DNA of 64,000 nt. It comes from a virus. Below, in pieces: positions 10,527-30,780 of this stretch (the stretch's first letter is position 1; every line of letters starts with the position of its first letter). Under the pieces are notes generated by a model. The model had not been told where the DNA came from, searched no databases, and was given only the letters and a program-made list of their open reading frames with translations. The stretch lies in the IMG/VR virus record IMGVR_UViG_3300035694_000088. One strand, written 5' to 3'. A program made the position numbers and the translations under genes.

Positions 10527-12296
10527 GTGGCACGTCGCCGTTTTCTCCCGGCCCTACGCCAAGCGCTGGCCGGGGGCTCGTCGGGTCAAGGTGACCTCGA
10601 TGCCCGGATCGTGTCTGGCCCGTCCGGGTACGTCGTCCCTGGACAGCCCTACCCGGTGGACTGGTCGGTGGCCCGCTCCGTTGAGGAGGGCTACTCGTGG
10701 AACCCGTATGTTTTCCGGTGCGTGGAGTTCGTCGCCGCCAATGAACGTGCCCGGCGCATGGTGCTGCGCGCTGATGACCCCGACACCGGGCCGATCATCG
10801 AACCTGATCAGCAGTCCCGGGAGCAACGCCGCATCCTGCGGGTATTGAATCGGCGCGCCAATGAGTGGGAGATCGCCCAAGTGTGGCGTCACCGCCTGAC
10901 CGCCCAGTTCATGCTCAGCTCACGCGGGGTGTTCGTTGAGGCGGTCCGGACCCGCTCTGGTGGTATCCACTCGGCGTATCTGCTGGACCCTGATCGGGTC
11001 CTGCCGGTACCGGGGCGCCGCAAAAAGGACCCCAACGACCCTAATGAGAAGGGCGTCGTCGTCCCCATCGAGTCGTTTCGGGTGACCACCGCTGTGGCCA
11101 ACGGTTCCCCGCACTACGACTGGCGGCCACCGTTTGATCCTGATGCCGACGCCGAGAGCCAACCGTCGGGCATCGTGTGGTTGCGTTCCCCGCACCCGAC
11201 GATGTTCGAGCGGGGCATGTCGCCGGTGGAGGCGGCCGGTCTCTCGGTGGACCTCGATCGGTACGCGCGGTTGTATAACCGCAGGTTCATGATGGAAGAC
11301 GGGCGACCGGGTGGGGTGCTCGCCGTCAAAGGTGACCTCGATCCGCAGTACGAGGAGGTGCTTCAGCAGCGCTTCCGGGGTGGCCCGGATGTCGCCAACT
11401 CCCGCACCACCGTCATCCAGGCCGACGACATGGCCTGGACCGACACGTCGGGCACTCCTCGTGACACTCAGTGGGGCGACACGATGGATCGGACGAAACG
11501 CGAGATCTGTGTCGCGTTCGGCCTGCCCGAATCGGTGGTGTCGGATTCATCGGGGGAAACCTTTGACAATGCTGACGCCGATTACGCCAAAGCGTGGGAA
11601 CACTGCATGCTCCCACTGTTTCGACTACTTGATGGACAATTGGATGTACTTTCTCCAGGCGGATATGATGACGATACATTTCTTAACCACGACGTATCCG
11701 ACGTGTGGGTGCTCGGTCGGCACAAGCGAGCCGAGGAGGATCGGGCCGCCGCCGACCTAGATCGGGGCACTATCACCATCGACGAGTACCGGGAGATCTG
11801 CGGGCGTGACCCGTGGGATGTGCCCGCTACGCGCGTGCTGTGGATTCCCGCCGCCCGACTGGTCGTCGACGACGGGGAGCGCGATCACGATGGGGACGCC
11901 CAGGCGGCCAGTACGGCGCCGATCGGCAATGGGCAGCTCGGTGCGGCCGGGATGTCTGGTGGCGCCCCGGGTGGGGCGGGTATTCCCAACGCGTTGCCTC
12001 CCGGGTTCGGGGTTGATCCTGATGCGGATCTCGACGGCGCGGGGCAGGGCACGGGCAGTGTCCCGATCCCTGGGGCGCCCGGGGTGGCGGTTCCAGGGAT
12101 CGCACCACCACCGCCCATGAAGATGCCCAGGCCGCACGCGGCGATCGGGGCCGGTGGGGCGCCGGGCGCCGGTTTCGGGCCGCCCAGTACCCGCATGGAG
12201 GCCCAAGCGGGTCGCACGGTGCCCGGTGGGGGTTTGACGCAGGTCAAAAGTGCGGAGGATGAGCAGAGCGGGGGGCGACCTCCTCGCAGCCGATGA
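10527..12296 (+). CDS. portal protein (HK97-like) with Gly/Pro-rich C-terminal extension
   Basis: EEGYSWNPYVFRCVEFVA, DGRPGGVLAVKG, D..WGDTMDRTKREICVAFGLP, TITIDEYRE..G.DP. Confidence 0.9.
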   Translation: MARRRFLPALRQALAGGSSGQGDLDARIVSGPSGYVVPGQPYPVDWSVARSVEEGYSWNPYVFRCVEFVAANERARRMVLRADDPDTGPIIEPDQQSREQRRILRVLNRRANEWEIAQVWRHRLTAQFMLSSRGVFVEAVRTRSGGIHSAYLLDPDRVLPVPGRRKKDPNDPNEKGVVVPIESFRVTTAVANGSPHYDWRPPFDPDADAESQPSGIVWLRSPHPTMFERGMSPVEAAGLSVDLDRYARLYNRRFMMEDGRPGGVLAVKGDLDPQYEEVLQQRFRGGPDVANSRTTVIQADDMAWTDTSGTPRDTQWGDTMDRTKREICVAFGLPESVVSDSSGETFDNADADYAKAWEHCMLPLFRLLDGQLDVLSPGGYDDDTFLNHDVSDVWVLGRHKRAEEDRAAADLDRGTITIDEYREICGRDPWDVPATRVLWIPAARLVVDDGERDHDGDAQAASTAPIGNGQLGAAGMSGGAPGGAGIPNALPPGFGVDPDADLDGAGQGTGSVPIPGAPGVAVPGIAPPPPMKMPRPHAAIGAGGAPGAGFGPPSTRMEAQAGRTVPGGGLTQVKSAEDEQSGGRPPRSR

Positions 12297-13632
12297 GCTG
12301 CCCGAGCTGCCCGTAGAGCAGATGATGGTGTTCGAGGCCCCACCGGATCCCCCGGTGGGTTCGGTTCGTGACGCGATGGCCGATGCGGGGTCGGTGCGGG
12401 TGGATCAGGCGATAGCCCTGATGGATGCGGCGATTACCGGCTACAACGAACGCCTCGCGGCGGTGGTGGAGGCCCGGATGCGGAGCCCGAAGACCCGCAA
12501 GGGCACTCGATTCTGGAATCCGTCACCTGATGGGGTGAAGTCTGGATTTATTCGAGGGGTAAGCGACTCTTCTACACATAAGACCCCCGTAGGGGTCGAG
12601 GTAAAAGCCATCGACGCGTCCTACGTGCTCCCCGAGCGCACCGTCGACGAGCTGGGCGACGTGGTCCGCCCCGTGTGCCTAAGGATCGTCGCCGACGCCA
12701 CCAGTAACGTCGCCAGATCCCTCAAGCGCCCCAACACCGGGCTCGCTGCGTTCGACTGGGCCGACATCAACGCCACCGTCGACGACGCCGTGAAGCGCCT
12801 GCTGGACGTCAACGAACGCCACGCTCGCGATGTCCGGGGCGAGATTCTGCGCGCCGATTCCGACGCTGGTTCCCTGTCCGCAGCGATCGACCGGGTCACC
12901 GAGGCCACCCGCAGGGGTGGCCGGTGGTTATTGCTGGCCGGGCGCACGCTGGCGACGGCGCTGACGGGGGATGCGGCACTGGCGGCGGCGAAGGCCTTGG
13001 GGGTCACTCATGTGCAGTGGTTAACCCGTCGGGATGACCGGGTGCGCGAGACTCACCGGGTGGCCGATGGTCAGGTCCGGCCGGTGGGAGCTAAGTTCGC
13101 CGTCGGCGGGTTCGGGCTGCGGTTCCCGGCCGACCCCGAGGTGCTGCCGGAGGGCGGCCCGGAGGTCTACGGGTGCCGCTGTTCACTGCTGTTCGCGCCC
13201 CCGTCCCCGCTGCGCGCTAAGGCGGTCGCGTTGGCGCAGCGGGGCACTGAGGTTTCGGCGCGGAGGCTGGTCGATGTCGCGGACAGAGCTACCGGAGCCG
13301 ATCTGGTGCTCGGTGCGCCAGATCTCGGTGCGGGTATGTCCGTGCCTGCCGTGCCAGTGCCCCGCGATGTTGTTGGCTATCGCGTCCTTGGGGCGCAGGG
13401 CCCGGTCGCGCCGGGTCAGCAGGTCTCGTGGCCGGGGCCGCTCGCGTTAGCGTTGGCGCCCCCGGTGGCGGCGGGGTTGGCGGTGTTGGCGGTGGCGATC
13501 TCAGCGGGAACGGTTGTCGGGGTGGCTAACGGGGCGGTGGTGCTGCCGTCGGGGGTGCCGTTGGCGGTGGCGTCGGTCAGTGGTGGGCAGGTGGTGGCCA
13601 CGCCGGTCGTGTCGCCGGTCGCGGTCGTCTGA
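12259..13632 (+). CDS. MuF/SPP1 gp7-like head morphogenesis protein with degenerate C-terminal domain
   Basis: WLTRRDDRVRETH..ADGQ, FPADP, YGCRC; GGAGG RBS before ATG 12259. Confidence 0.85.
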   Translation: MSRAGGDLLAADELPELPVEQMMVFEAPPDPPVGSVRDAMADAGSVRVDQAIALMDAAITGYNERLAAVVEARMRSPKTRKGTRFWNPSPDGVKSGFIRGVSDSSTHKTPVGVEVKAIDASYVLPERTVDELGDVVRPVCLRIVADATSNVARSLKRPNTGLAAFDWADINATVDDAVKRLLDVNERHARDVRGEILRADSDAGSLSAAIDRVTEATRRGGRWLLLAGRTLATALTGDAALAAAKALGVTHVQWLTRRDDRVRETHRVADGQVRPVGAKFAVGGFGLRFPADPEVLPEGGPEVYGCRCSLLFAPPSPLRAKAVALAQRGTEVSARRLVDVADRATGADLVLGAPDLGAGMSVPAVPVPRDVVGYRVLGAQGPVAPGQQVSWPGPLALALAPPVAAGLAVLAVAISAGTVVGVANGAVVLPSGVPLAVASVSGGQVVATPVVSPVAVV

Positions 13633-13650
13633 TCCGGTTACAGTGCGCGC

Positions 13651-16536: not shown

Positions 16537-16926
16537 ATGCGTCGCGTGCAGCCCGCCGCGCAGTCCCCCACGCAATGTGCGCCGGGGTGCGGCGCTTGCT
16601 GCGACCCGGTCGCCATGCCCGTGCCACCAGATCGCATGAACGGCCCGTCGGGTCCGTTCGCCCGCCAGCACTGGCACGTGATCAGCGTGGTCGAGGACGA
16701 CCGGTCACCCACCGGGCGGGTGTACTCCCTACGCTGCGACCAGTTCGACCCGCACACCCGACGGTGCGGTGCCTACGCGGTCCGGCCGCCGATCTGCGCG
16801 AACTATCCCGCTTACGGGCACCCGCTGTCACCGTGCCACCCGAAGGCCGACGCGATTCCCCTCGTGTGCGCCTTCCAGGCTGACGTGCGCACCGTCCTGC
16901 CCCTGGTGGCGATCAATGGCCGATAA
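16537..16926 (+). CDS. YkgJ/UPF0153-like Cys-cluster (Zn/Fe-S) protein; start uncertain
   Basis: C...CGACC, C..FD..TRRC.AY..RP.IC..YP. Confidence 0.75.
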   Translation: MRRVQPAAQSPTQCAPGCGACCDPVAMPVPPDRMNGPSGPFARQHWHVISVVEDDRSPTGRVYSLRCDQFDPHTRRCGAYAVRPPICANYPAYGHPLSPCHPKADAIPLVCAFQADVRTVLPLVAINGR

Positions 16927-18760
16927 CCCCGATGTTGTCGCCACCCCCGCCACGCCCCCCACCGATGACCCGCAAACCGGGGGGATGCTCGCCCTGATCC
17001 CCGACAACGTCGAGCAGCTCGCCGTCGAGGGTGGCCTGCCCGCCAGTGAGCTCCACCTGACGTTGATCTACCTGGGGGATGACGTCAGCACCTGGGCGCC
17101 GGGACAGGCCGATCACCTCAAGGCGCTCGTGACGGCCAGCGGGCCGGGTTTGGATCCGGTGAACGCCCGGATCATGGGCCACGCCCTGTTCAATCCCGAC
17201 GGCGGTGCTGACGGGGACAAATCCCCGTGCGTGGTCTACCTGGTGTCCGACACGCCCGACCTCGAACCGTTGCACAAATGGGCCACCTGGACGGCGACCA
17301 CGGGACAGGATTACCCGACCCCGCCACCGCAGCACCAGCCGTTCATCCCGCATATCACGGCCGGGCAGGACATCGGACCCGATGAACTGTCCTACACCGG
17401 GCCGGTGCGGTTCTCGACATTGCGGTTGGCGCTGGGTGGCGACGTGACTGATGTGCCGTTGGGCGAGCAGGAGGACACCGTGGCCGGTCCGCAGATCAAG
17501 GGCATCACTTTCACCCCACCGAAAGAGGTTCGCGACGCAGCGTGGGATTTAGACGGCCCAATGGCCTGTGATGTGGTCGAGGGCAAGGCCCTGGACCCGG
17601 ACGGTTTGGTGTGGGTTGCGGCGCACTGCGGTGACGTCGGCCGGGAGTGGGCCCGGGACATGCTCGGTCGGGTCGAGGTCAAGACCGACATGAACATGGG
17701 CCGTGTCGTCGGCGGTGACCGGCCGAAACTGGAGTCTCTGAAAGACCTCGATGACGCGATCGGGGCGCATCACGAGCTGCCCGCCCAGGAGCGCGCGGAG
17801 AACGTCAAACGCCTCAAGGCGTCCGCGCACCGCCTGGGCGCGGATCATCACGTGCACGAGCGGATCGGCAGTCTGGAGACCGCCACGACCGACGGGTCCG
17901 GGCGCAAGGATGACGCTGACGGCGTCGAGTACAAGACGTGGGCGCCGGGCAATTCGACACCGCCGCTGTTGCCGCATCTGGCCGCGCTGGATCAGGCGAT
18001 CGCCGCGCACCACAAGGTGCGTCCGGAGGCGCGGGGTAAGCACAAGCACCATCTGAAGGTTGAGGCGCACCGTTTGGGTGCGTCGGGCAGTGTGCACGCC
18101 CGGATCGACACTCTGGAGCCGCATTCTTTCCATCCGGCACTGAAATCCGGTACTGATGGTGTCGAGTTCAAGGTCACCTCACCGGGGCCGGGCGCGACCC
18201 GCTTGCGGGAGTATTGGGCGCGCAATCCGAAAGGCCGGGCGAAGTGGCGTCCGGGCAGCGGCGGGGATTTCAACCGGCTGCGCCGCCATTTGGCGAAGTA
18301 CGTGCACAACCCGAAGATCCTTAACGGTTTGGCCGCGAACATTCACAAGATGGCCACCGGTGAGTGGCCCGGTAAGAATGCGCACACCATTCGAGCGAAG
18401 CCCGGCAAGCCGCTCACCTACGGGATTAAGTCCGTCGTGGCGTGGGAGTCGGTCGAGCAGAAGGACGCCCTCACCGAGCCGGACATGGCGGAGCTGTTCG
18501 CCGGGGTCGACGACTGGGGGCGTGAGTTCATCAGCGATGAGGCCGACGCCTACCTCGCGGCACTGGCCGAAGCCCAGGGCGAGCTCCCTGACGAGGGGGA
18601 GCCCGGGGACGTTGAGCGGACCGCCGCGCTGGCCGCGTTGGGCGCGAAACTGGTCGCTGACCCTGCCATGGGGGGGTCCGGGGACACCTCGGACGCTGCG
18701 GGAACCGACGCGGGGGACAGTTTGTTCGGCAGTACCGGGGTATCAGGGGTCGGGGAGTGA
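16916..18760 (+). CDS. multidomain head-associated protein: 2H phosphoesterase, two helical repeats, YW..GD..TGEWPG domain
   Basis: HLTL (17054) and HITA (17351) 2H motifs; lies between MuF and protease. Confidence 0.75.
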   Translation: MADNPDVVATPATPPTDDPQTGGMLALIPDNVEQLAVEGGLPASELHLTLIYLGDDVSTWAPGQADHLKALVTASGPGLDPVNARIMGHALFNPDGGADGDKSPCVVYLVSDTPDLEPLHKWATWTATTGQDYPTPPPQHQPFIPHITAGQDIGPDELSYTGPVRFSTLRLALGGDVTDVPLGEQEDTVAGPQIKGITFTPPKEVRDAAWDLDGPMACDVVEGKALDPDGLVWVAAHCGDVGREWARDMLGRVEVKTDMNMGRVVGGDRPKLESLKDLDDAIGAHHELPAQERAENVKRLKASAHRLGADHHVHERIGSLETATTDGSGRKDDADGVEYKTWAPGNSTPPLLPHLAALDQAIAAHHKVRPEARGKHKHHLKVEAHRLGASGSVHARIDTLEPHSFHPALKSGTDGVEFKVTSPGPGATRLREYWARNPKGRAKWRPGSGGDFNRLRRHLAKYVHNPKILNGLAANIHKMATGEWPGKNAHTIRAKPGKPLTYGIKSVVAWESVEQKDALTEPDMAELFAGVDDWGREFISDEADAYLAALAEAQGELPDEGEPGDVERTAALAALGAKLVADPAMGGSGDTSDAAGTDAGDSLFGSTGVSGVGE

Positions 18761-21700
18761 CCGCCACTCTCGGCGATATTGACACCCCGGAGGACATGAG
18801 TCCCCTGGAGTGGAAGTCCCTGCCGGGCGGGGAGATGACCTCCCCACTGACCGGGGTGATCGGTCACGACGACGCCGACGGCACGATCACCGCTTTGGTC
18901 GCGGTGTCTGGGGTGGTCGATGAGGTCGGTGACGTCATCGTGCCCGGCTCCCTGGAGGCGGCGATCAAGCGGCTTAAGCCTAAGGGGGTGATGTCGCACA
19001 ATTGGGGCGAGAAGGTTTCTAAGCTGGTGTGGTCGAAAGAGTTGATGCCGGGCGACCCGATGCTGCCCAAACAAACCCCCGACGGGCAGCCGTGGCCCGC
19101 CAACGCGGGCGGTCTGCTGATCAAGGCCCGGTACAATCTCGATAAGCAATCCGGGCGGGACGCGTACGCGGACGCGAAGTTCTACGGCCCGGAGGAGTGC
19201 TTTTCGATCGGCTATAAGGTTCGCCCCGGTGGCGCCCGGATGCGCAACGGGAAACGGTACCTGCACGATTTCGATCTATACGAATGGTCGCAGGTGCTTC
19301 ACGGGGCGCACCGTCTGGCGACCCTGACGGGGGTGAAATCCCTCGCCGACACCATCGAAGCCCCGTGGTACGATGGCACCCGTTCCGGTGACATCGAGGG
19401 GGATACCGCTCTGCCTGCTGACGTGGAAACCAAGGTTCGTGTTGTCCGCGACGCGGACTTCTGGCACCTGCCCGTCGGCACCCCCATCAAGCCCGGCATG
19501 GTCCCCCACGGACTGAACAGGCCACCCACCGCGCAAGAACTGCACTCCACCACCGCCGAAACCGGTGACGACGCCGGAGTCCACGGCGCCCCCGACGACG
19601 TCGCCACCCCCGGCATGCCCGGTGCCCCCGTTGGCCTGGGCGCCCCACCCATGCCCGACATGGCACTGCCCACCCCCGGGCCGAAAGACGGCGACGTACC
19701 CACCGGTGACCCCGAGGCGGCCGTCGAAGCGCTACGCAAACGCGTCGGAGAGATTCAGAAGCTCAACACTCCGGCCGCCCGCACCGCAGCCGCCGCCCTG
19801 ACCCCATTCCTGGTCCCCGGCGCGCCCGTGCGGGCATCAGCCGACGGGCAGCTCGTCGCCGTGCACACCGGTGACGCCTGGCGCTTCGCCGACACCGCCA
19901 ACGGTGGTGTCATGCAGGCCACCCTGCCCGGCACCCTGCCCCAACCCAACGTTGATGTCGTACTCCACGACCTGTCCCAGGTCGGTATCCCCTGGGATTC
20001 CGTGGAGGCCCGTCGCAAGCGCTGGTCCGATAACCCCGCCCAGCTCCAAGCCGACAAGACCGCTGTAGCGGGCATTTTCGCCAGGGGCGGCCTACCGCCG
20101 ACCACAACACCAGCCGGGGTCGGTGGCGCGGGAATGGGCGCCCCGCCACCCCCCGGCGTCCCCGCGCCACCGCAAGCGCCGAATGCGCCACCCGGTGCAC
20201 CCCCCAACGTCCCCGGTGCACCGCCCAACGCCCCAGGGCTCCCCGTCGGGGCACCGTCGGGTTACGCCCAACCCCCGGCCGTGCCCCCGGTACCGCCGCA
20301 AGCCGCCCCTGCCGTCACCCCCCCTCCGGCAGGGGCACCCCCCGTTTCGCCGAAAACGTTCCCGCGCGGCTCCCTGAAGGGCCACGGGGTGCAGCTCGGT
20401 GACCGGATCCGCGTCCACGGGCACCCCAAAGGCACTCTGGAAGGCACCGTCGAAACCGGCAAGACTGGGCACCATCTTGTGCACGACGACGGCACTAAAA
20501 CGTGGATCGGTGGGGCCGGGTCGCGCCACCACGTGGAGAAGCTCGGCAAGGCCGCCGACCAGCCGCCCAGGCCGCAGCCCGCCCCGGAGCCCGACAAGCC
20601 CGCCGCGCCCGCCGCGCCCGCCGCGCCGGAGCCGTATCAGGCCACCGGCAACATCAACGCCCCGCACAAGCTCACCGACGAACAACTGGCCACCGAATCC
20701 GCCCACGCCGCCGCCCGCTACGCCCGCGCCCGCGCCAACGGGGCACCGAAGACCTCCGTCGAGCATCACGACGCGAAACTGGGTCACACCGTCTTTCAGG
20801 ACGAGATCCGGCGCCGGGCCACCGGCGGGGAACACACCCCCGACGCGCCCCCGACACCGGGGACACCTCCCGCGCCGGATCTGAAACCAGTCTCGGACAT
20901 GACCCTGGAGGAGCTCCGCACCGAACGGCGCGGTCTGCTCAGCAATCACCGCACCCCTGCGGAGACGGCTCGCCTGCGCGAGATCCGCGACGAGATGACC
21001 CGCAAGGAAGACGCCGCCTGGCAAGAGGAGATGGCGACCGGTCGCGCCCATAAGAAGCTCGCTAATGCCGACGGCCCGGAGCTCCTGAAGGCCCTCTCTG
21101 AGGCATCCGACGAAGACCTAGCGAAGACCGCAGCCACTTGGAGCAAGAGCGACTCCAAGCGGGCTCGCCTCGTCAAGGGAGAGATCGCCCGACGGGCGGC
21201 TGCCGGTCAGGCCGCCGCGCCGGACAAGCCCGGAGAGGTCCCCGAGGGCAGTAAGCCCGCCGACACGATCCGAGTGCCCCCCGAGCTCGCTGACGGTGCA
21301 CACAAGGTTCGGGCGGACGCGCTGGGCATCATCGACGGCCCCGACGGGCAAGAGGAACTGACCCCCGAGGTCGCCGACCGGCAAGACCGCGTCCAAGCGC
21401 ACCTGGCGGCCGGGGAAACCGCCCTGGCCGACAAAACCGACGACGAGCTCCCCACGATCCGCAAGGATCTGACCGACGAGCTGGCGCTACAGAACGAACT
21501 GGCCCGGCGTGACATCGAGCGTCGTAAAGAGGTCGCCGCCGCGAAGGCCGGGGCGCCTTCCGAGTCGGCGGCCAACGCCCCGGCCGGGGCGGAAGATACC
21601 GGCCCGAAGCTGCGCCCCGGTGTCGCGGGGGCCGCCGAAGACCTCGGCGACGCCCTGAACGCCAAACCCCGTGACGACGCGACGGTGCACGCCGCCGCCG

Positions 21701-24700
21701 AACGGTTCGCGAAGATGCTGCGCCGTCACGGGGACTCGAAGTCCTTTGACGCGGTCCGGGCCGCTGCCGGTGACGACATCCACGCCGCCATCGCTTCTGG
21801 TGAGCTGCGTGCGGGGATGCTGTTCACCGCCGCCGGGGGTGTGCGTGAGGAGCGGCGCCTGGCCCGCAATGAGGGCGCTAAGAAGCGCCGTCTGGCTAAG
21901 CGCCTGGACCGGGACCGGATCAAGGCCCTCATCGGTGCGGTGGACACCGAGATCAGGTCGCGTAAGGATCGCAAGCGCGGCGCGGTGGAAACCAAACCTT
22001 CGGCGGTTCCGGTTGCGAGCACCACCGCGCCGTCCAAGCCGCGCGCCGCCGCCGAGGCCGCCATCCGTGACGGGGACCGGATCGCCCTGGTCGATGCCCT
22101 GCGGGAGATGGGTGACCCGGGTCCGCGTGAGACCGCGATGCGTCTGCGGGAACTGCCCGAGGATGAGGCGGTCGCCGGGCTCGCTGATGTCGGCAAACCG
22201 GCCAGCGTACCGGAGCCCGCCCCCCACCGAGGGCAGGTTCGCCGCGACGAACGCGACGCCCGTCTCGCCGCCGACGACAACCGCGTCGGCCGCGCCCAGG
22301 AGCACATGCGTCAGGCTCGCGCCGCCGCCGACGACGGCGACTTCGAGGGTGCATTCGCCCACCTTGATAAGGCGCAGGAACTGAACCCGGAGCGTCAAAA
22401 GCTGTGGGATAAGGCACGCGGGATCATCACCGAGCAGCGGGACCGCGCTAAGGGTGCACAATCGCCTGAAACGGAAGGCGGTGACCATGAACGCCCTAGC
22501 GGACCAGATCGAGGCGTGGTACCAGAAGTACCAACCGGAGGTCTACGACGGGATCAAGGACAAACCGGCGTTCTTTCGGGAACTGACCGGCCGGGCGAAC
22601 GAACAGATCGCCCAGTTGACCGACGCGCTGGCGGGACCGGACCAGCCAGGGGAGACCTACGCCCACAAACTGGGGCGCCTGAACATGGCGCAAGCGCAGG
22701 CGACGGAGAAGGTGACACGCGAGTTCGCGATGTGCCCACCGCCCCCCAACTGGAAAGACAGTCCGGCGCCGAGCCCGGAGACACCGGACCCGAGCATCCT
22801 CCCGGACGAGACGCCGGAGGACCGCAAGTTCCGGACGGCGATGGAGGACTTCGCGACAGCGAGCAGCGAACTGGACGACCAGCGCCGGAACACGAGACTG
22901 AAGACACTGCCGGTCCTGCCACCCCGGGGCAAGACACCGGCACCCCCGACCGGGAAGTAACCGCCGAGGACCAGCCCGGCGCGGACGCTTCGCAGGTCGA
23001 TGCGATCCCCGACACCGGGGAGTCGTTTCGCCCCACGGGTGAAGCCCTGGCCCCTGCGGGTAAGAAGGCGAAACTGGCGGCGAACCTCGCCGCCCTGCGG
23101 GTGCTGCGGGAGCTCCAGACCGAGAAGCGCTCCGCCACCCCGGCCGAACAGACCGTGCTGTCCCGGTGGGCCGGGTGGGGTGGCCTGCCTGAGGTGTTCG
23201 ACGATCGGAAAACCGAGTATGCGAAGGAGCGCGAGGAGCTACGTGGACTGCTGTCGCCCGCTGAATGGAACGAGGGCCGCCGCAACACCCTCAACGCTCA
23301 TTACACCGACCCCCGTGTTGTGCAATCAGTGTGGAAGGCGGTGGAGGATCTCGGGTTCGACGGCGGCCGTGTGCTTGAGCCCGGCTCCGGTTCCGGCACG
23401 TTCATCGGATTCGCCCCACCTGGGGCGGACATGGTCGGGGTCGAGCTGGACTCCACGACCGCTGCGATCTCTCGTGCCCTCTACCCGCACGCGACGATCC
23501 GCAATGAGTCTTTCGCCAAAACTCGCCTGCCAGCGGGGTCATTCGACGCGACGGTAGGCAACGTCCCGTTCGGGCAGTTCAGTCTGACCGACCGGGTGCA
23601 CAACCCCGGCCAGAAGATGTCGATCCACAACCATTTCATTGTCAAGTCGCTGGCGATGACCAAGCCCGGTGGTGTGGTCGCCCTGTTGACGTCGCGTTAC
23701 ACGCTGGACGCGCAGTCACCCCGGGACCGCAAGCGCATGGCGGAGATGGGGGATCTGATCGGGGCGGTGCGCCTGCCCACGGGGTCGCACTCGAAGACCT
23801 CCGGTACTGACGTCATCGAAGATGTGTTGATCTTTCGGCGTCGGGAGCCGGGCGCGGCCCCCCTGACCCCACAAGACTGGATCAACTCCAGTGAGCACGA
23901 CATCGACGGTCACCAGATCACCGTCAACGACTACTTCACCGCCCACCCCGACAACGTCCTCGGCGAGCTCCACGCCGAACCCGGCCAGTACGGCACCGGC
24001 AGCCTGATCGTCAAGGGCGACAGGGACATGCCGGGGCTCGCCGCCGCCCTCGACCGCATCACCGAGCAGGCCAAAGCCGACGGGGCCACCGCCACACCCC
24101 GTATGACCGACCTGCACGCCCTGGTCGACGCCGACACCGCCCGCCACGAAGGCCACATCGCCGCCCATGACGACGGCACCTTCACCCAAGCCGCCCAAGG
24201 CACCGCCGTCCCCTTCGACGTGCCCGACAAGCAAGCCGAGGAACTGCGCGGCCTGATCGGCATGCGCGACACCCTGACGTCGCTACTGACCGCTGAAGCC
24301 GCATCAGTGTCCGACTCGCCCCAAATCAAGGCACTGCGCGCCGACCTCAACGACCAGTACGACGCCTACGTCAAACGCTACGGGCCGATCAACCGCTACA
24401 CCCTGACCAAAACCGGGGCCCGCAACGCCCCCGGGCAAGGCGGGTTCCGGCGCGATCCCATGTCGGCGATCGTCCGCGCGTTGGAGGTCTACAACCCCGA
24501 GACCGGCAAGGCCGTCAAGACCGACATCTTCACCAAACGGGCCAGCTCCCCGCGTGAGATCCCCACCCACGCCGACTCACCCGCCGACGCGCTCGCCCTG
24601 TGCCTGGACACCTACGGGGAAGTCAACCTCCTCGAGATCGCCAAAATGCTCGGCGTCGGTGAGACCGCCGCCCGCCATCAGCTCGGCGACCTCGTTTTCG

Positions 24701-27700
24701 AGCAACCGCCCCTGACCGATGCCGAGCACACCGCCGCATGGACCGCCATGCGCGAAGACCACGGCGGCCTGGCCGACGAGAACGTTCCCGCCGACCGCAT
24801 CGACCTGTCCAGCGTTGGCGAATCGGTGCGCGCTGAAGGCGCCCTCGAACCTGCCGCCGCCTACCTGTCCGGCAACGTGCGCCGCAAACTGGCCGCCGCG
24901 AAGGCCGCCGCCGCCCACGATGACCGGTTCGCGCCCAACGTCGCCGCCCTGGAGAAGGTCATCCCCACCGACCTGGGGGTCGATGAGGTCGACGGGCGCC
25001 TGGGTGCGGCGTGGATCCCCGCCGACGACGTCAAGGCGTTCATGGTCGACCTGCTCCATGACGGCAACGACCGCTACAACTCCGTGCAGGTCGCCACCTC
25101 CGGTGGCGGGATCTGGACCGTCAAGGGCGGTGACCACGGGAACAAGGCCACCGAGCAGTGGGGCACCAGCCGCAAATCCGCTGGTGAGCTTATCGCCGCC
25201 ATGCTGGAACAAAAACCGATCCGGGTCACCGACACCATTGACGGGAAGTCCTACCCGAACCTTGAGGAGACCCTGGCAGCGCAGGCGAAAGCCGACGAGC
25301 TACAGGAACGGTTCTCCGAGTGGCTGTTCGAGGACTCCGATCGCACCAAGCGTCTCCTGCGGTCCTACAACGACCAGTTCAATGCGATCCGGTTGCGGTC
25401 CTACGACGACATGCCCCGAGTGTTCCCCGGTATGGCCGACCGGTTCGTACCCAGGGATCATCAGGTTTCGGCCGTCAACCGGATCGTTTCCGAGCCCACC
25501 GCTTTGCTGGCGCACGTCGTCGGGGCGGGCAAGACTGCTGAAATGGCCATGGGCGCCGCCGAGCTCAGACGCCTGGGGATGGCTAAGAAGCCCGCGATCG
25601 TGGTCCCTTCGCACATGCTGGAGCAGTTCACCCGCGAATATCTCCAGATCTATCCCAACGCGAAGATCCTGGCCGCTGGGACCGATGATCTGGGCGGGGA
25701 CAAGCGTCGGGAGTTCGTGGCGCGCGCCGCCACCGGGCAATGGGATTGCGTCATCCTGACAAAAGATGCGATGCAGCTCATTCCCATGTCGCCCGAGGCG
25801 ACAGAGGCATACATTGCTCGCGAAATGGCCACCATGCGCGCCCAACTGGAAGCCGCCCAGGCCGAAGGCGGGGACGCCGCCCAGCAGGCGACAGTAAAGA
25901 AAATGGAGAAGGCCGTCATCAGCGCCGAGGAGGCGCTGCGGGCGAAACTGGAGAAGACGAAAGACGCGGGGGTGTCTTTCGAGCAGACCGGCATCGACTA
26001 CCTGTTCGTCGACGAGGCACACCAGTACTCGAACCTGCGCACCGTGTCCAACATTCAGGGCGCCGGGGCGACCGGGTCGGGTATCGCCACCGACCTGCAC
26101 ATGAAGATCGAGCACCTGCGGGCGAACAACGCATCAGGGCGGGTGGCGACGTTCGCCACCGGCACCCCGATCCGCAACACCGTGACGCAGGCGTACATCA
26201 TGCAACGGTTCCTGCGGCCCGACCTGCTCAAAGAGGCCGGGATCAACTCGTTCGACCAGTGGGCCGCGACGTTCGGGCAGACCGTCGACGAGATGGAACT
26301 GAAGCCCGAGGGCACAGGTTTCCGCCAGACCACCCGGTTCGCGAAGTTCCGCAACGTCCCCGAACTGCTGCGACTGTTTCAGATCTTCGCCGACGTCAAG
26401 ACCGCTGAAGACCTCAACCTGCCCACCCCGAAACTGGAGGGTGGGGAGGTTGACAACGTCGTCGTACCGTCCACTGATGAGCTCAAGGCCACCATGGCGG
26501 AGCTCGCGCAGCGCGCCGACGACTACCGCAACGGCAAGCCGCAGAAGCGAGAAAACGCCGCTGGTACCGGCGAGGTCGAAGACATGATGCTGCTGATCAG
26601 CATGGACGGGCGTAAGGCCGCCATGCGGCAGTCGGACAAGCTGGACATAGCGGCCGACAAAATGTTCGCGATCTGGGAGAAGACCAAAAACAAGCCGGTA
26701 CCTAAAGACCTCGACGATCCCACTGCCGGGGATGACCCGCCACCCGGTGGGCTACAGATCGTGTTCTCCGACATGTTCACCCCCGGTGGCACCGGCGCTG
26801 ACGATTTCAACGCTTATGAGGCGCTGCGGCAGAAGCTGGCCGACCGGGGAATGGACCCGACCACGATCAGGTTCATGCACGACGCGAAAAACGACCGACA
26901 GAAGGCGGAACTGTTCGCCGCCGCCCGCAACGGTCAAGTCTCCGTCCTCATCGGGTCCACAGAGAAAATGGGTGTCGGCACTAACGTGCAACGCCGCGCT
27001 GTGGCCCTGCATCACCTCGACGCCCCGTGGCGCCCGTCGGACCTCGAACAGCGCGACGGCCGGATCATGCGCCAGGGCAACGCCAACGACACCATTTCGA
27101 TCCACCGGTACGTCACCGAAGGCTCATTCGACGCCTACATGTGGCAAACCCTGGAACGCAAAAAGAAGTTCATCGACCAGATCATGCGCGGCACCCTGGA
27201 TCAGCGCGAGATCGAAGACGTCGGCGAGACCGCCCTGTCCTACGCCGAAGTCAAAGCGCTGGCCACCGGCAACCCCCTGCTGTTGCACAAGGCCACCGTC
27301 GACACCACGATCGGCAAACTGTCCCGCCTGGAACGCACCCACAATCGCACCCAAACCAACCTGCGGCGCGACGTCACCAACTACCGGGCCAAAGCCGAAG
27401 CCGACGACGAGCACGCCACCCACCTCACCCGCGCGATCACCAAACGCACCGACACCACCACCGGTGACAACTTCGCGATGACCGTCCACGGCACCACCAC
27501 CCACGATCGGGGTGAGGCCGCCGCGATGCTCAAGGCGAGCATCGAAGACGTGGTTCGCAACAACTACTACAGCAACAAACCCAAGCCGGTCGCCGAGTTC
27601 GGTGGCCACCGGCTGATGGCCGCCGTGGACACCTACTACGACCGTTCCGGGGCCCGGCGTTCCGGGGTGACCCTGACGTGGGATGGGATCCCCGACCACA

Positions 27701-29181
27701 AGGCCGCGACTCTGGGTCACACCCAAATGGCCAGCATCGGTCAAGGCACGCTGGCCACCCTGCACAACTCTCTGCACTCCCTGGAATCCCGCAGGGACCG
27801 GGCCGTCGCCCGCGCCGAGCACCTGCGTGACGAGGCCGCCGTGATGGAACAACGCGTCGGCGTGGAGTTCCCGCACGCGCAAGCCCTCAAGGAAGCACGG
27901 GCGGAGTCCGCGCGCCTGAGTGCCGCCATGACCAAAGCGGGCATGTCGGCCACCGGCGAGTCCGGTGACTCCGAAGCGACCAAAGCGCTCGCCACGGCCC
28001 GGACGAAGGCCGCCACCCAGGCCACGCGCATGGGCCGCTCCGGTGGCACCGCAGCGGCCACCCTGAAACGGTTCGGCAACTCCACCGCATCCCCCGGCGC
28101 GGTCGCCTCACCCAGTGGCGCGATCGGCGCGTTCGGGCGTGACCACGATGCGCACGTGTTCCTCACCGACGACGGCACCGACCTGCGGGATCTGGCCGGG
28201 ATCAGCTCAACGACCATGCCCGGTGTCATCGACAACAATCAGGCCCTGGTCGATGACCTGGACAAGCTGGATCTGCCCCTGGCCGAGGGCGTTCACGCCC
28301 TGTACCGGCGCTGGAACGACTACACCTATGAGGCCCCGGACTACTCGAAGCCCTACGAGGAGCGGGAGCGCATCGCCCAGGCGAAACGGGACAAGGTCAA
28401 GGCCGTGGAGGCGGGGGACAAGGCCGCGATCCGGGCGGTGTTCGCCCGGCACATGGTGGCCGACACGACCCCGGCGAAGACCGGGGTGGAGCTGGCGAAG
28501 GTCAACGCCGCGCGGGCCGCCACGGGCACCCGCATCGGGGATCTGGCCAAGAAGCGGTTGCAGCGGTTCGCGAAGGCCAGCAAACGCATCGAGCACTACT
28601 CATCGGATGACGGCACGATAGCGGCGGTGGCCGACACCAGCGGGAACCTGGAGTACTTCCCGACCGGTAACGGCAGGCCGCTCAACGACCCATCGTTGGA
28701 GCGGCCGATCGCCGACCCGCAGGCCGTGGTCAACGACCTGGCCGCCCTGAACATCCCCCTGGGCGACAACGACGCCCTGCGGGAACGGTGGGGCAAGGGC
28801 GACGGGCAGCAGCAAAAGGACTTAGAGGCGATCAAGGCGGTCTATCGTCGCCACATGGAGCCCGAGGAGAAGGCCCTGATCAGTCCCATGGACCTGCTGA
28901 GGGCGCACCGTATCGGTGTTGAGGTCAAACTGCGCGCCGATACGGGGGCTAAGCCCGCACCGGACGCCGGAGACGCCGGGCTGGAGCCGTTCACCACGAT
29001 CGTCGCTGATGACGTGCGCTACACCATGGACGCGTCCGGGGTGCTTCAGCGGCTCGTCGACTGCCCGGAGTGCGGGGCGCAGATGACCGTCCCGGCCTAC
29101 GGGGGGTCGGTCGCCCCACCGTGCCCCGCGTGCGGTGCGGTGCCCCAGGGTGTCGACTCGCGCCGGGCGCCGGTGGGCTGA
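18757..29181 (+). CDS. prohead protease (HK97/S78) fused to DarB-like N6-methyltransferase and SF2 helicase
   Basis: Protease SHN/FSIGY; MTase VLEPGSGSG and GNVPFG; helicase HVVGAGKT, VDEAH, TGTPIRN, WRPSDLEQRDGRIMRQGN; C-terminal CPEC..CPAC. Confidence 0.85.
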   Translation: MTATLGDIDTPEDMSPLEWKSLPGGEMTSPLTGVIGHDDADGTITALVAVSGVVDEVGDVIVPGSLEAAIKRLKPKGVMSHNWGEKVSKLVWSKELMPGDPMLPKQTPDGQPWPANAGGLLIKARYNLDKQSGRDAYADAKFYGPEECFSIGYKVRPGGARMRNGKRYLHDFDLYEWSQVLHGAHRLATLTGVKSLADTIEAPWYDGTRSGDIEGDTALPADVETKVRVVRDADFWHLPVGTPIKPGMVPHGLNRPPTAQELHSTTAETGDDAGVHGAPDDVATPGMPGAPVGLGAPPMPDMALPTPGPKDGDVPTGDPEAAVEALRKRVGEIQKLNTPAARTAAAALTPFLVPGAPVRASADGQLVAVHTGDAWRFADTANGGVMQATLPGTLPQPNVDVVLHDLSQVGIPWDSVEARRKRWSDNPAQLQADKTAVAGIFARGGLPPTTTPAGVGGAGMGAPPPPGVPAPPQAPNAPPGAPPNVPGAPPNAPGLPVGAPSGYAQPPAVPPVPPQAAPAVTPPPAGAPPVSPKTFPRGSLKGHGVQLGDRIRVHGHPKGTLEGTVETGKTGHHLVHDDGTKTWIGGAGSRHHVEKLGKAADQPPRPQPAPEPDKPAAPAAPAAPEPYQATGNINAPHKLTDEQLATESAHAAARYARARANGAPKTSVEHHDAKLGHTVFQDEIRRRATGGEHTPDAPPTPGTPPAPDLKPVSDMTLEELRTERRGLLSNHRTPAETARLREIRDEMTRKEDAAWQEEMATGRAHKKLANADGPELLKALSEASDEDLAKTAATWSKSDSKRARLVKGEIARRAAAGQAAAPDKPGEVPEGSKPADTIRVPPELADGAHKVRADALGIIDGPDGQEELTPEVADRQDRVQAHLAAGETALADKTDDELPTIRKDLTDELALQNELARRDIERRKEVAAAKAGAPSESAANAPAGAEDTGPKLRPGVAGAAEDLGDALNAKPRDDATVHAAAERFAKMLRRHGDSKSFDAVRAAAGDDIHAAIASGELRAGMLFTAAGGVREERRLARNEGAKKRRLAKRLDRDRIKALIGAVDTEIRSRKDRKRGAVETKPSAVPVASTTAPSKPRAAAEAAIRDGDRIALVDALREMGDPGPRETAMRLRELPEDEAVAGLADVGKPASVPEPAPHRGQVRRDERDARLAADDNRVGRAQEHMRQARAAADDGDFEGAFAHLDKAQELNPERQKLWDKARGIITEQRDRAKGAQSPETEGGDHERPSGPDRGVVPEVPTGGLRRDQGQTGVLSGTDRPGERTDRPVDRRAGGTGPARGDLRPQTGAPEHGASAGDGEGDTRVRDVPTAPQLERQSGAEPGDTGPEHPPGRDAGGPQVPDGDGGLRDSEQRTGRPAPEHETEDTAGPATPGQDTGTPDREVTAEDQPGADASQVDAIPDTGESFRPTGEALAPAGKKAKLAANLAALRVLRELQTEKRSATPAEQTVLSRWAGWGGLPEVFDDRKTEYAKEREELRGLLSPAEWNEGRRNTLNAHYTDPRVVQSVWKAVEDLGFDGGRVLEPGSGSGTFIGFAPPGADMVGVELDSTTAAISRALYPHATIRNESFAKTRLPAGSFDATVGNVPFGQFSLTDRVHNPGQKMSIHNHFIVKSLAMTKPGGVVALLTSRYTLDAQSPRDRKRMAEMGDLIGAVRLPTGSHSKTSGTDVIEDVLIFRRREPGAAPLTPQDWINSSEHDIDGHQITVNDYFTAHPDNVLGELHAEPGQYGTGSLIVKGDRDMPGLAAALDRITEQAKADGATATPRMTDLHALVDADTARHEGHIAAHDDGTFTQAAQGTAVPFDVPDKQAEELRGLIGMRDTLTSLLTAEAASVSDSPQIKALRADLNDQYDAYVKRYGPINRYTLTKTGARNAPGQGGFRRDPMSAIVRALEVYNPETGKAVKTDIFTKRASSPREIPTHADSPADALALCLDTYGEVNLLEIAKMLGVGETAARHQLGDLVFEQPPLTDAEHTAAWTAMREDHGGLADENVPADRIDLSSVGESVRAEGALEPAAAYLSGNVRRKLAAAKAAAAHDDRFAPNVAALEKVIPTDLGVDEVDGRLGAAWIPADDVKAFMVDLLHDGNDRYNSVQVATSGGGIWTVKGGDHGNKATEQWGTSRKSAGELIAAMLEQKPIRVTDTIDGKSYPNLEETLAAQAKADELQERFSEWLFEDSDRTKRLLRSYNDQFNAIRLRSYDDMPRVFPGMADRFVPRDHQVSAVNRIVSEPTALLAHVVGAGKTAEMAMGAAELRRLGMAKKPAIVVPSHMLEQFTREYLQIYPNAKILAAGTDDLGGDKRREFVARAATGQWDCVILTKDAMQLIPMSPEATEAYIAREMATMRAQLEAAQAEGGDAAQQATVKKMEKAVISAEEALRAKLEKTKDAGVSFEQTGIDYLFVDEAHQYSNLRTVSNIQGAGATGSGIATDLHMKIEHLRANNASGRVATFATGTPIRNTVTQAYIMQRFLRPDLLKEAGINSFDQWAATFGQTVDEMELKPEGTGFRQTTRFAKFRNVPELLRLFQIFADVKTAEDLNLPTPKLEGGEVDNVVVPSTDELKATMAELAQRADDYRNGKPQKRENAAGTGEVEDMMLLISMDGRKAAMRQSDKLDIAADKMFAIWEKTKNKPVPKDLDDPTAGDDPPPGGLQIVFSDMFTPGGTGADDFNAYEALRQKLADRGMDPTTIRFMHDAKNDRQKAELFAAARNGQVSVLIGSTEKMGVGTNVQRRAVALHHLDAPWRPSDLEQRDGRIMRQGNANDTISIHRYVTEGSFDAYMWQTLERKKKFIDQIMRGTLDQREIEDVGETALSYAEVKALATGNPLLLHKATVDTTIGKLSRLERTHNRTQTNLRRDVTNYRAKAEADDEHATHLTRAITKRTDTTTGDNFAMTVHGTTTHDRGEAAAMLKASIEDVVRNNYYSNKPKPVAEFGGHRLMAAVDTYYDRSGARRSGVTLTWDGIPDHKAATLGHTQMASIGQGTLATLHNSLHSLESRRDRAVARAEHLRDEAAVMEQRVGVEFPHAQALKEARAESARLSAAMTKAGMSATGESGDSEATKALATARTKAATQATRMGRSGGTAAATLKRFGNSTASPGAVASPSGAIGAFGRDHDAHVFLTDDGTDLRDLAGISSTTMPGVIDNNQALVDDLDKLDLPLAEGVHALYRRWNDYTYEAPDYSKPYEERERIAQAKRDKVKAVEAGDKAAIRAVFARHMVADTTPAKTGVELAKVNAARAATGTRIGDLAKKRLQRFAKASKRIEHYSSDDGTIAAVADTSGNLEYFPTGNGRPLNDPSLERPIADPQAVVNDLAALNIPLGDNDALRERWGKGDGQQQKDLEAIKAVYRRHMEPEEKALISPMDLLRAHRIGVEVKLRADTGAKPAPDAGDAGLEPFTTIVADDVRYTMDASGVLQRLVDCPECGAQMTVPAYGGSVAPPCPACGAVPQGVDSRRAPVG
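22487..22960 (+). CDS. nested TnpV-like ORF in an alternate frame of the giant gene
   Basis: AAGGCGGTG RBS, high GC3 in this frame, FF.EL...IAQL..ALAGPD.PGE.Y..KLGRLN.A...A.E.V motif. Confidence 0.6.
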   Translation: MNALADQIEAWYQKYQPEVYDGIKDKPAFFRELTGRANEQIAQLTDALAGPDQPGETYAHKLGRLNMAQAQATEKVTREFAMCPPPPNWKDSPAPSPETPDPSILPDETPEDRKFRTAMEDFATASSELDDQRRNTRLKTLPVLPPRGKTPAPPTGK

Positions 29182-29189
29182 AATAAGAG

Positions 29190-29226
29190 ACGACCCCTGG
29201 GCGGGGGGTAGTCCCAGGGGCCGTCG
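29190..29226 (+). terminator. hairpin after giant gene
   Basis: GACGACCCCTGGG...CCCAGGGGCCGTC. Confidence 0.5.
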
Positions 29227-29430
29227 GGCCAGGGCTGCGCACCCTGGCGGGGGGGCCTTCACCATATGCGATTCTCCGGCGTGTCGCCACTTCCCTCTGC
29301 GCCACCGGTGATCTACTCCCGGTAACGCGCCTGGTGCTGACCGGTGCGAGACATCCGGGCGTATTCGCCGGGGGCCTCGCGCTGCCCGACGTGACGCCTT
29401 CCCTCACACCGATCACAGAGGAGGGCGGCA

Positions 29431-30780
29431 GTGACCGCACCTACCCTCGACCGCCACGACAAGGATCTGATCAGTCGCGGTCGAGCTGAAGTCAAAACCC
29501 TGAACACCAAACTTGATGAGATCACCAAATCCGGGTGGCTCGATTCCGACGGCAACATGCACGTCGAGCCCGGTGCGCTGGCCGAGTTCAAAGACACCCT
29601 GGCCAAGGCTGAGGAGGCGCACGGTATCGTCGCCGCGCTGGAGCGCAAGGGTGCTCTGGATGCGTGGCTCGATGCCCCCGCAACCGATTCCCCCGCCGCG
29701 CTGGTAGCTGGCGGCGGCAACATGGTCCGCCAGGCCGAGTACAAGTCGCTGGGTCAGCGGTTCGTGGAGTCGACCGAGTTCAAGGGTCACCGTGATTCCG
29801 GGTTCATGGATTCCGCTTTCGTGGTGGAAGACCAGGAGATCACCTACGGGGCGCAGTTCAAGGATGTGCACTCCGGGTCGATCGGGGTTGTGACTCACCC
29901 CGGTTTCGGCACGGTGCAGCGGGCACCGATGGTGCAGGCCCCCATGCTCACGTGGCGGGTCCGGGACTTGTTCCCGCAGATGAACACCAACTCCGTGATG
30001 ATCGAATACATTGAGGAGCTTGGGTTCGTCGACGCGGGCGACAACGCCGCCGCGATGATCCCCGAGCGTGACGGGGTCGCGCCACCTAACGACAACTTCG
30101 GTCTGAAGCCGAAGTCACAGATCCACTTCAACATCAAGACCACGCCGATCCGGACGCTGGCGCACTGGGTTCCGGCATCACGCAACGTGCTTGATGACGA
30201 GCCGCAGTTGCGGGGGATCATCGACACCCGCCTGCTGTACGGCCTGCGTCTGGTCGAGGACCAGCAGTTGCTGCTGGGTGACGGCACGGGACAGAACCTG
30301 CTCGGCATTTTCAACACGCCGGGTATTCAATTGTTCCCCTCCGGCGGGTATCACGCACCCACCAATGAGACCTATGTTGACGCCATTCGCCGTGGCGCCA
30401 CGCGGGTCATGCTCGCCCAGTACGACCCCACCGGCGTTGTCGTGCACCCTTACGACTGGGAGCGCATGGAATTGACCAAGGACACCCAGGGCCGCTATCT
30501 GGTCGCGGGGTCGGTCACTTCCGGTGCGGAGAAGCGGCTGTGGCAGATGCCGGTTGTGGCCACCCCGGCGTGCCCCGAAGGCACCGCGCTGATCGGCGCG
30601 TTCGGTTTGGGCGCGCAGGTCTTCGACCGGATGCAGTCCAATATCCGGACCGCTGACCAGCACGCGGACTTCTTCGTCCGTAACGCGATCGTGGTCCTGG
30701 CTGAGGAGCGGCTCGGTTTGGCCGTCTACCGTCCGGCCGCCATGGTCAAGGTCAACCTGTCCGCCGCGATCACTCCGTAG
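29431..30780 (+). CDS. major capsid protein, HK97 fold, with N-terminal delta domain
   Basis: RTLAHWVPASRNVLDDEPQLRGIIDTRLLYGLRLVEDQQLLLGDGTGQNLLGI; AEERLGLAVYRPAA. Confidence 0.95.
   Translation: MTAPTLDRHDKDLISRGRAEVKTLNTKLDEITKSGWLDSDGNMHVEPGALAEFKDTLAKAEEAHGIVAALERKGALDAWLDAPATDSPAALVAGGGNMVRQAEYKSLGQRFVESTEFKGHRDSGFMDSAFVVEDQEITYGAQFKDVHSGSIGVVTHPGFGTVQRAPMVQAPMLTWRVRDLFPQMNTNSVMIEYIEELGFVDAGDNAAAMIPERDGVAPPNDNFGLKPKSQIHFNIKTTPIRTLAHWVPASRNVLDDEPQLRGIIDTRLLYGLRLVEDQQLLLGDGTGQNLLGIFNTPGIQLFPSGGYHAPTNETYVDAIRRGATRVMLAQYDPTGVVVHPYDWERMELTKDTQGRYLVAGSVTSGAEKRLWQMPVVATPACPEGTALIGAFGLGAQVFDRMQSNIRTADQHADFFVRNAIVVLAEERLGLAVYRPAAMVKVNLSAAITP

Follow-up and report, generated by a model that had tools for sequence, protein, structure and literature searches.

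A Glu/Gln-x-Lys motif as the probable cleavage signal of a cargo-fused S78 prohead protease in the head proteins of an actinobacterial phage

RESULTS

Layout of the head module

We analyzed a 64,000-nucleotide stretch of viral DNA (IMG/VR record IMGVR_UViG_3300035694_000088; here, the window) with a G+C content of 67%, which holds the late genes of a contractile-tailed actinobacterial phage, and in particular a short motif, Phi-[E/Q]-x-K (Phi, hydrophobic), that recurs in the head proteins and is probably the cut site of the phage's own prohead protease. Genes were called with a codon-usage model, and relatives were drawn from a protein collection and from metagenome contigs. The head genes run in the order portal, MuF, genes of the DUF732 and DUF932 families, 2H protein, giant protein, and capsid (Table 1); the tail genes (sheath, tube, and tape measure) lie at 40323-45698. 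Eight syntenic metagenomic contigs of 74 to 121 kb have the same head-gene order, and the succession of portal, MuF, 2H protein, giant protein with its protease first, and capsid is thus common to the window and all eight. A scan of genome contigs with the 2H protein as the query found no relative; among cultured phages, the best capsid match is less than 50% identical and none has the 2H-giant layout.

The last 38 nt of the portal gene (12259-12296) also form the start of the MuF gene in a different frame, an arrangement kept in the relatives, and both proteins match one portal-MuF fusion profile, phrog_2662. The overlap and the shared match suggest an ancestral fusion or coupled translation. 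The 2H protein probably starts at M50 of a 663-aa open reading frame (ORF), giving 614 aa, the length of its homologue P0001.

The giant protein consists of a propeptide, an S78 protease, a linker and helical regions, a methylase-helicase, and a C-terminal zinc ribbon. The methylase-helicase matches phrog_10089 (E = 0 over aa 2028-3172), phrog_11801, PF04851, and PF00271, and by these matches its architecture is that of DarB. The N-terminal protease and its flanking motifs are fused to other cargo in a series of homologues (P0123-P0131): P0126 and P0128 carry zeta-toxin/AAA_33 kinase domains, and several homologues of 2200 to 2460 aa have no recognized domain.

The giant protein begins with an S78 protease

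As judged from sequence profiles and structure prediction, the first domain of the giant protein is an S78 (HK97 gp4-type) prohead protease with an assemblin-like fold. The window copy scores 19.1 bits against PF04586 (E = 0.0016), below the curated cut-off of 21; this family is matched by 10 of 23 aligned homologues, with a best E value of 9.7e-11, and P0129 carries it as well. H81, S150, and H182 are invariant in all 23 homologues, and the positions of their motifs (SHNW, FSIGY, and LHGAH) point to a catalytic triad. An AlphaFold2 (AF2) model gives a predicted local distance difference test score (pLDDT) of 86 to 95 over residues 39-194 and low values in both flanks, namely, residues 1-38, with LEWK17-20 among them, and residues 195-226, with VETK223-226 as the last four. 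Searches of PDB sequences with the protease domain or its profile returned nothing useful, and a fold search was needed: T4 gp21 (5jbl; probability 1.00, E = 2e-3, template modeling score of 0.50 by target) is the first of the top 14 Foldseek matches, ahead of herpesvirus assemblins, in a list that is coherent although its E values are weak.

Enrichment and consensus of the motif

An earlier note on this DNA had listed recurrent VExK motifs at the domain borders of the head proteins and proposed them as a maturation-protease cleavage code. Translation reproduced every motif and coordinate that it listed; one further instance, VEGK in the 2H protein, had been missed. The portal, MuF, 2H, giant, and capsid proteins (together 5583 aa) contain nine VExK motifs against 0.90 expected from composition (Poisson P = 4.7e-7), while the 59 other called genes (12862 aa) contain two against 1.11 expected and thus show no excess (head versus other, Fisher test p = 6e-4). 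The enrichment in head over other ORFs that such a code predicts is therefore present. Outside the head genes, the earlier note had counted a single instance, the VEAK of a secreted protein, which we regard as background; a second one, VERK, occurs in an FtsK-like gene at 2304-4445 on the minus strand.

Control motifs are flat in the head set, with VDxK found 0 times against 1.23 expected, VExR twice against 1.65, and the reversed KxEV not at all. As a guard against cherry-picking, we ranked three-residue patterns of the forms ab-x-c, a-x-bc, and abc (3 x 8000), and VExK came first among these 24,000 in the head set (Bonferroni-corrected P of ~0.01). The excess extends to relatives: across eight related loci, [VI]ExK is found 45 times in head proteins (9.06 expected) and once elsewhere (3.5 expected), and 104 homologues of the 2H protein hold 225 [VILM]ExK motifs against 30.4 expected, with reversed, Asp, and Arg controls at 0.3 to 0.8 times expectation. 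Related genomes share ancestry, and P values across them overstate independence.

Within the window, the 2H protein contributes most of the excess (5 observed, 0.17 expected). Since five of the nine strict matches thus fall in one protein with a tandem repeat of ~50 aa, and the giant protein by itself shows no significant excess (3 against 0.95), the motif might be a product of chance or composition, or an echo of the duplicated segment of the 2H protein, without a function shared between sites. We give this explanation hardly any credence in view of the first rank of VExK, the flat controls, the unrelated DNA and protein sequences that flank the different sites, and the persistence of the motif in nonhomologous contexts, namely, five proteins and hundreds of diverged sequences. 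DNA repeats and recombination junctions, which we also considered as a source, are ruled out by the unrelated flanking nucleotides. The surrounding nucleotides do not recur from site to site, which places the motif at the level of the protein.

Pooling 166 distinct site decapeptides yielded a consensus of G, D, or A at P6 and P5; V (33%), A (20%), L (16%), or I (16%) at P4; E (89%) or Q (10%) at P3; V, F, or Y at P2; K at P1; A or S at P1'; and L or A at P2', where the values at P3 and P1 are partly circular, as these positions served as selection criteria. A strict Val at P4 was rejected as a rule: relatives use V, I, L, A, M, or T, and Gln may replace Glu. One relative (L008) lacks [VI]ExK altogether, yet has LEIK, MEFK, MEYK, and AQFK/SLG at the matching places (slashes mark actual or proposed cuts). 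Judged from these alignments, the fixed parts of the motif are the Lys at P1 and the Glu or Gln at P3. The recognition rule is thus probably V, I, L, or A at P4, Glu or sometimes Gln at P3, often V, F, or Y at P2, Lys at P1, and usually A or S at P1'.

The motif coincides with the predicted capsid maturation site

The capsid protein is 38% identical to HK97 gp5, with the cross-link residues K169, N356, and E363 aligned (Lys in LKPKS, Asn in FVRNA, and Glu in AEERL). Since these three chain-mail residues are retained, the head is probably covalently cross-linked. An N-terminal segment of 105 aa precedes K/SLG, and the delta domain of HK97 has 102 residues (PMC4351075, PMC12749128). The predicted border between this segment and the mature capsid, AEYK105/SLG, aligns with TFNK103/SLG of HK97, which is cut between K103 and S104; Brevibacterium phage Cantare, a cultured phage whose protease belongs to the same clade and contains MEMK and VETK, reads MEAK/SLG in its capsid, and matches to the window capsid in cultured phages start at aa 103-106. 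Three further sites lie inside the delta domain (Table 1). A possible second N-arm site, AQFK/D, is located 39 residues past K/SLG and 32 aa before the RDL motif, compared with 30 aa in HK97, and a cut there would leave an N arm of HK97-like length.

A measured N terminus is available for an actinobacterial phage: by Edman sequencing, the capsid of mycobacteriophage LittleE begins with DLDRNNGTGG (PMC3706429). The matching point in its relative Omega reads GEEYR/DLDRNGGTGG, with Glu at P3 and a basic P1.

Sites in the giant, 2H, MuF, and portal proteins

In the giant protein, the motif lies on both sides of the protease, at the end of the propeptide and at the end of the flexible post-protease linker, where two of 27 homologues have Asp in place of Glu. 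The fold itself ends in GVK/S, which would represent a second site class, Phi-K/S; HK97 gp4 has AAMK/S at the equivalent place, and DGVKS occurs in MuF. The segment directly after the post-protease site, VRVVRDADFWHLPVGTPIKPGM, follows the pattern VRVVRD..FWxLPxGTPIxPGM and is kept whatever the cargo, which makes it a candidate anchor or targeting element. Two further candidate sites precede the C-terminal zinc ribbon.

The VETK at 21985 was rejected as a family-level site, being absent from all 18 aligned relatives, and consequently no family-level conserved site lies between residues 226 and 3372. As had been claimed, the giant protein contains no further strict VExK between 21996 and 28918. 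The proposal built on it, that the methyltransferase-helicase is released whole, is not supported for the family, in which this domain would stay joined to residues 227-1080.

The 2H protein was aligned with 15 homologues that are 48% to 83% identical to it. At VEFK and VEQK, the E and K are invariant while P4 and P2 vary and indels lie nearby; the VEVK and VEYK sites are kept as V/I/A-E-x-K wherever the adjoining module exists. The segment at 17690-18160 (aa 271-400 of the 614-aa form) comprises two helical repeats of ~50 aa with a motif site at each border; their pattern is ..AIxAHxxxxPxxRxxxxxxLKxxAxRLGA..H.RI..LE, and more distant homologues have one copy. VEGK was rejected as a cut site: it belongs to an invariant EGKAL block with conserved flanks and is probably structural.

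The MuF site is Phi-E-x-K in eight of nine relatives (VELK, VETK, TEVK, LEIK, and MEAK). At or near the candidate point in the portal tail, most of nine relatives have x-[EQ]-x-K (QVK, EIK, or EAK) in an alignment inspected by eye, a conservation that is confounded by the overlap of this stretch with the start of MuF in another frame. Taken together, the Glu and Lys persist within variable, indel-rich linkers in eight syntenic relatives and more than 100 homologues. This conservation is stronger evidence than the enrichment within the window.

The motif accompanies a clade of S78 proteases

A profile search of 1.8 billion representative proteins returned 7012 relatives of the protease, 792 of them below 1e-30. 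We examined 151 representatives, made up of top profile hits and six family proteins. Of these, 116 have a Phi-E-x-K immediately before the domain, against 7.6 expected, and 104 have one immediately after it, against 20.6 expected. Fusion proteins of 1 to 3.5 thousand residues are common among them as well.

Enrichment and conservation show that the motif has a function but not which one. It might instead be a docking or capsid-targeting tag, with the inside of the shell, the delta domain, or the portal as its partner, or supply a Lys/Glu pair for isopeptide attachment; that the capsid keeps the HK97 cross-link residues is in keeping with the latter. We consider this unlikely, as one instance sits exactly at the HK97-homologous K/SLG maturation site, the motif stands on both sides of the protease in most of the 151 clade members, as self-release predicts, and the delta-domain sites suit scaffold degradation better. 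Furthermore, the S78 proteases of HK97 and T5 are reported, in a secondary statement, to cut after Lys (PMC13517437).

Gordonia phage Dexdert, which has the same 2H and YW modules, served as a negative control and shows no motif enrichment (2 against 1.02 expected). Its protease appears to be of a different type, as judged from the sequence without a Pfam scan. Dexdert gp18 (L015, 3753-6590), a head maturation protein, carries both a YW..GLAANL..WPG domain and a 2H domain, and YW and 2H modules thus recur as head-associated parts in actinobacterial phages.

A basic P1 is common among bacterial serine proteases, and staphylococcal phage 80alpha reportedly uses a host protease, Prp. The sites might therefore be cut by a host or other protease rather than by the fused S78 domain, whose link to the motif is drawn from sequence. 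We hold this to be highly unlikely: the motif covaries with this S78 clade, it is not enriched in Dexdert, where the same cargo modules accompany an apparently different protease, and the capsid site aligns with the cut site of HK97 gp4.

Other features of the window

Between the capsid and the neck genes (31992-37212) lie genes for a sortase, an Rpf/LysM transglycosylase, and DUF2786, YdjM, and HIT-family proteins; the arrangement is also kept in relatives (loci L003-L005 and L010). Inside the giant gene, another frame of the plus strand holds an ORF of ~170 to 190 codons (22385-22960; third-position G+C of 0.84), which overlaps a low-complexity stretch in the frame of the giant protein.

Table 1. 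Genes, domains, and candidate cleavage sites of the head module (slash, proposed cut; homologue counts refer to the protein concerned)
Feature	Coordinates	Strand	Evidence or remark
Portal gene, 589 aa, Gly/Pro-rich C-terminal tail	10527..12296	+	PF04860, E = 2.6e-35
Portal tail, TQVK/S, candidate site	12237..12248	+	Gln at P3; cut would remove last 15 residues
MuF-like head morphogenesis gene	12259..13632	+	PF04233, E = 6.6e-5; phrog_2662, phrog_859
MuF, VEVK/A, candidate site	12595..12606	+	Variable linker from N-terminal segment to MuF core
2H (LigT-like) phosphoesterase, multimodule protein	16916..18760	+	PF13563, E = 9.4e-6; phrog_18402, phrog_2659
2H, VEGK, rejected as site	17576..17587	+	EGKAL invariant 15/15; flanks conserved (0.66); moderately confident AF2 block
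2H, VEVK/T, candidate site	17672..17683	+	x[EQ]xK 12/15 despite indels; start of low-pLDDT stretch 254-268
2H, VEYK/T, candidate site between two ~50-aa helical repeats	17924..17935	+	7/7 homologues with the extra module; low pLDDT 323-348
2H, VEFK/V, candidate site before YW..GDF..TGEWPG domain	18161..18172	+	E, K invariant 15/15; low pLDDT 402-424
2H, VEQK/D, candidate site before acidic C-terminal tail	18452..18463	+	E, K invariant 15/15; low pLDDT 493-543
Giant gene, 3474 aa	18757..29181	+	phrog_10089, E = 0; ResIII, Helicase_C; 27 homologues of 2201-3854 aa
Giant, LEWK/S, predicted end of 20-residue N-terminal propeptide	18805..18816	+	Phi-E-x-K 24/27; flank identity 0.41; pLDDT <50 for residues 1-38
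Giant, Peptidase_S78 prohead protease fold, aa 39-194	18871..19338	+	H81, S150, H182 invariant
Giant, GVK/S, candidate site, end of protease fold	19330..19341	+	K194 invariant 27/27
Giant, VETK/V, candidate site, end of flexible post-protease linker	19423..19434	+	x[EQD]xK 27/27; Phi-E-x-K 25/27; pLDDT <50 for residues 195-226
Giant, conserved segment, aa 227-253, directly after VETK	19435..19515	+	Kept 27/27
Giant, VETK/P, lineage-specific, weak candidate	21985..21996	+	1/19 aligned giants; closest relatives GAAHV-P, GAAAPKP
Giant, PEEK/A, candidate upstream of last site	28861..28872	+	x-E-x-K/[SAT] 16/19; flank identity 0.36
Giant, VEVK/L, candidate before zinc ribbon	28918..28929	+	x[EQ]xK 15/19
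Giant, zinc ribbon, 83-aa C-terminal module, Cys pairs CPEC, CPAC	28930..29178	+	Kept 16/19; zinc-ribbon Pfam matches faint
HK97-fold major capsid gene with N-terminal delta (scaffold) domain	29431..30780	+	PF05065, E = 3.8e-40
Capsid, AEVK/T, candidate site in delta domain	29485..29496	+	x[EQ]xK 8/9
Capsid, AEFK/D, candidate site in delta domain	29581..29592	+	8/9
Capsid, LERK/G, candidate site in delta domain	29638..29649	+	8/9
Capsid, AEYK105/SLG, predicted delta/mature capsid border	29734..29745	+	x[EQ]xK/S(L/I)G 9/9
Capsid, AQFK/D, possible second N-arm site	29851..29862	+	Phi-[QE]-x-K/D 9/9
VEAK, non-head secreted protein, background occurrence	33967..33978	+	One of 2 VExK in other genes

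DISCUSSION

The motif is enriched and conserved in the head proteins, lies in the variable flanks of folded modules, brackets the protease, and coincides with the HK97-homologous maturation site of the capsid. From these patterns and the analogy with HK97, we propose, with a probability of about 0.7, that Phi-[E/Q]-x-K is the cut site of the phage's own S78 prohead protease, the first domain of the giant protein. Of the cleavage code advanced in the earlier note, the core is supported by the enrichment, the conservation in linkers, the capsid border, and the bracketing of the S78 domain; its strict Val at P4 was too narrow.

In this scenario, the giant, 2H, MuF, and portal proteins would be built into the procapsid along with a capsid protein that bears its own delta scaffold, and the protease would then cut after the motif lysines. 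It would release itself at LEWK20 and VETK226, and perhaps also at GVK194, and chop the delta domain at residues 22, 54, 73, and 105. The portal tail would be trimmed, MuF would lose its first 116 residues (119 if translation starts at 12250), the 2H enzyme would be separated from three small modules and an acidic tail, and the C-terminal zinc ribbon would be detached from a DarB-like body of ~340 kDa. Once set free, the enzymes would remain in the head and enter the host cell with the DNA, paralleling the internal proteins of T4 and DarB of P1.

Several of the motif-bearing enzymes probably travel inside the head. For the DarB-like enzyme, its fusion to a prohead protease and its place in the head module suggest that it is packaged and protects DNA from restriction. 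Every fragment may be separate internal cargo, as the earlier note had it; several fragments of the 2H protein are small helical repeats that might just as well serve as disposable scaffolding or as anchors, in the manner of the capsid delta domain.

Several points weigh against the assignment of the motif to the S78 protease. The whole case consists of sequence statistics and analogy, and the genomes compared, being related, do not count as independent. HK97's own capsid site, TFNK, lacks the Glu at P3, and HK97 gp4 has TEIK at residues 13-16, just before the first hairpin, such that the upstream motif may in part be an ancestral structural element of the fold. Conserved ExK motifs also lie inside the folded helicase (MELK2516 and AEVK2833, with flank identity of ~0.9), and accessibility must therefore matter beside sequence. 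Furthermore, the enrichment in the window comes mostly from the 2H protein, where two sites adjoin the internal duplication, and the AF2 model of that protein has a mean pLDDT of 49.7; even the 2H fold scores low, and the model is thus weak evidence for linkers.

The closest parallel to the proposed cleavage is HK97 (gp4/gp5; also T5 pb11/pb8), which shares the order portal, protease, capsid, a capsid with its own N-terminal scaffold, and a Phi-K/S at the end of the protease fold. There are clear differences. The motif is extended here, with Glu or Gln at P3 and a hydrophobic P4, whereas the HK97 site has no such extension; it also occurs in four or more additional head proteins; and the protease forms the N-terminal domain of a cargo protein of 3474 aa, while that of HK97 is a free 25-kDa enzyme. 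The extended P4-P3 rule builds on the known rule that the HK97 and T5 enzymes cut after Lys. The cluster J phages Omega and LittleE (capsid gp15/gp13) are also actinobacterial, with an HK97-type protease and a delta domain; Omega differs in having Arg at P1 rather than Lys and Glu at P4. We found no multiprotein cleavage code described for cluster J phages.

The use of one code across many head proteins resembles T4 (gp21) and phiKZ/SPN3US, in which the prohead protease reads a single short consensus on the capsid protein, on itself, and on numerous proteins that are internal or ejected, removing propeptides and dividing some of its substrates into several fragments (PMC5694885, PMC10052503, PMC9026906). 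T4 gp21 cuts by the rule L/I-x-E (internal proteins and Alt) and the phiKZ/SPN3US protease by A/S/G-x-E, with Glu at P1 instead of Lys, and gp21 is S77-like, whereas the protease here belongs to S78. A shared N-terminal capsid-targeting tag of the T4 type (~10 residues ending in L/I-x-E) was not seen in the head proteins of the window. By its sequence features, the system works like T4 capsid targeting without being a member of it, given its Lys-ending sites and S78 protease, and cargo loading seems to proceed by fusion to the protease or through C- or N-terminal modules.

P1 DarB is a methylase-helicase of ~250 kDa, present at ~40 copies per virion in the head, that protects the incoming DNA (PMC9024508). 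It relies on a 30-residue N-terminal targeting signal and the helpers Hdf, DarA, DdrA, DdrB, and Ulx, and the P1 capsid is cut at E120/S121; the DarB-like enzyme described here is instead fused to a protease and bounded by Lys-ending sites.

That one protease motif can mark capsid, protease, and internal proteins is already known from T4 and phiKZ/SPN3US, as is Lys at P1 for S78 enzymes. While head processing after Glu in T4 and phiKZ-like phages is well worked out, little is known for the very common HK97/S78 family beyond cuts after Lys at a few measured sites. In the literature, we found no description of the extended Phi-E/Q-x-K rule, of the use of the motif across MuF, a 2H enzyme, and a protease-cargo fusion, or of its clade-wide breadth. 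We see about even odds that Phi-E/Q-x-K is a sequence-readable cleavage code of a large S78 clade. This clade comprises hundreds to thousands of clusters at 50% identity, and many of its members are fusions with cargo of 1 to 3.5 thousand residues, including DarB-like enzymes and zeta-toxin-like kinases. As the proposed cuts follow Lys, ordinary tryptic proteomics is blind to them, and Edman sequencing or nontryptic N-terminomics would be required for their detection.

In conclusion, if Phi-E/Q-x-K is such a clade-wide code, the mature head contents and the injected enzyme set would be predictable from sequence for a whole branch of actinobacterial phages, and fusing cargo to a protease that later excises itself would be a general way of loading the head, distinct from the targeting signals of T4 and P1. 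With a defined P4-P1 rule, the ends of the mature capsid, portal, MuF, and cargo proteins could be annotated across thousands of genomes of actinobacterial phages, and foreign proteins might be directed into heads. The rule would also point to the enzymes that are delivered with the DNA, namely, DarB-like anti-restriction proteins, 2H phosphoesterases, and, in relatives, toxin-like kinases.

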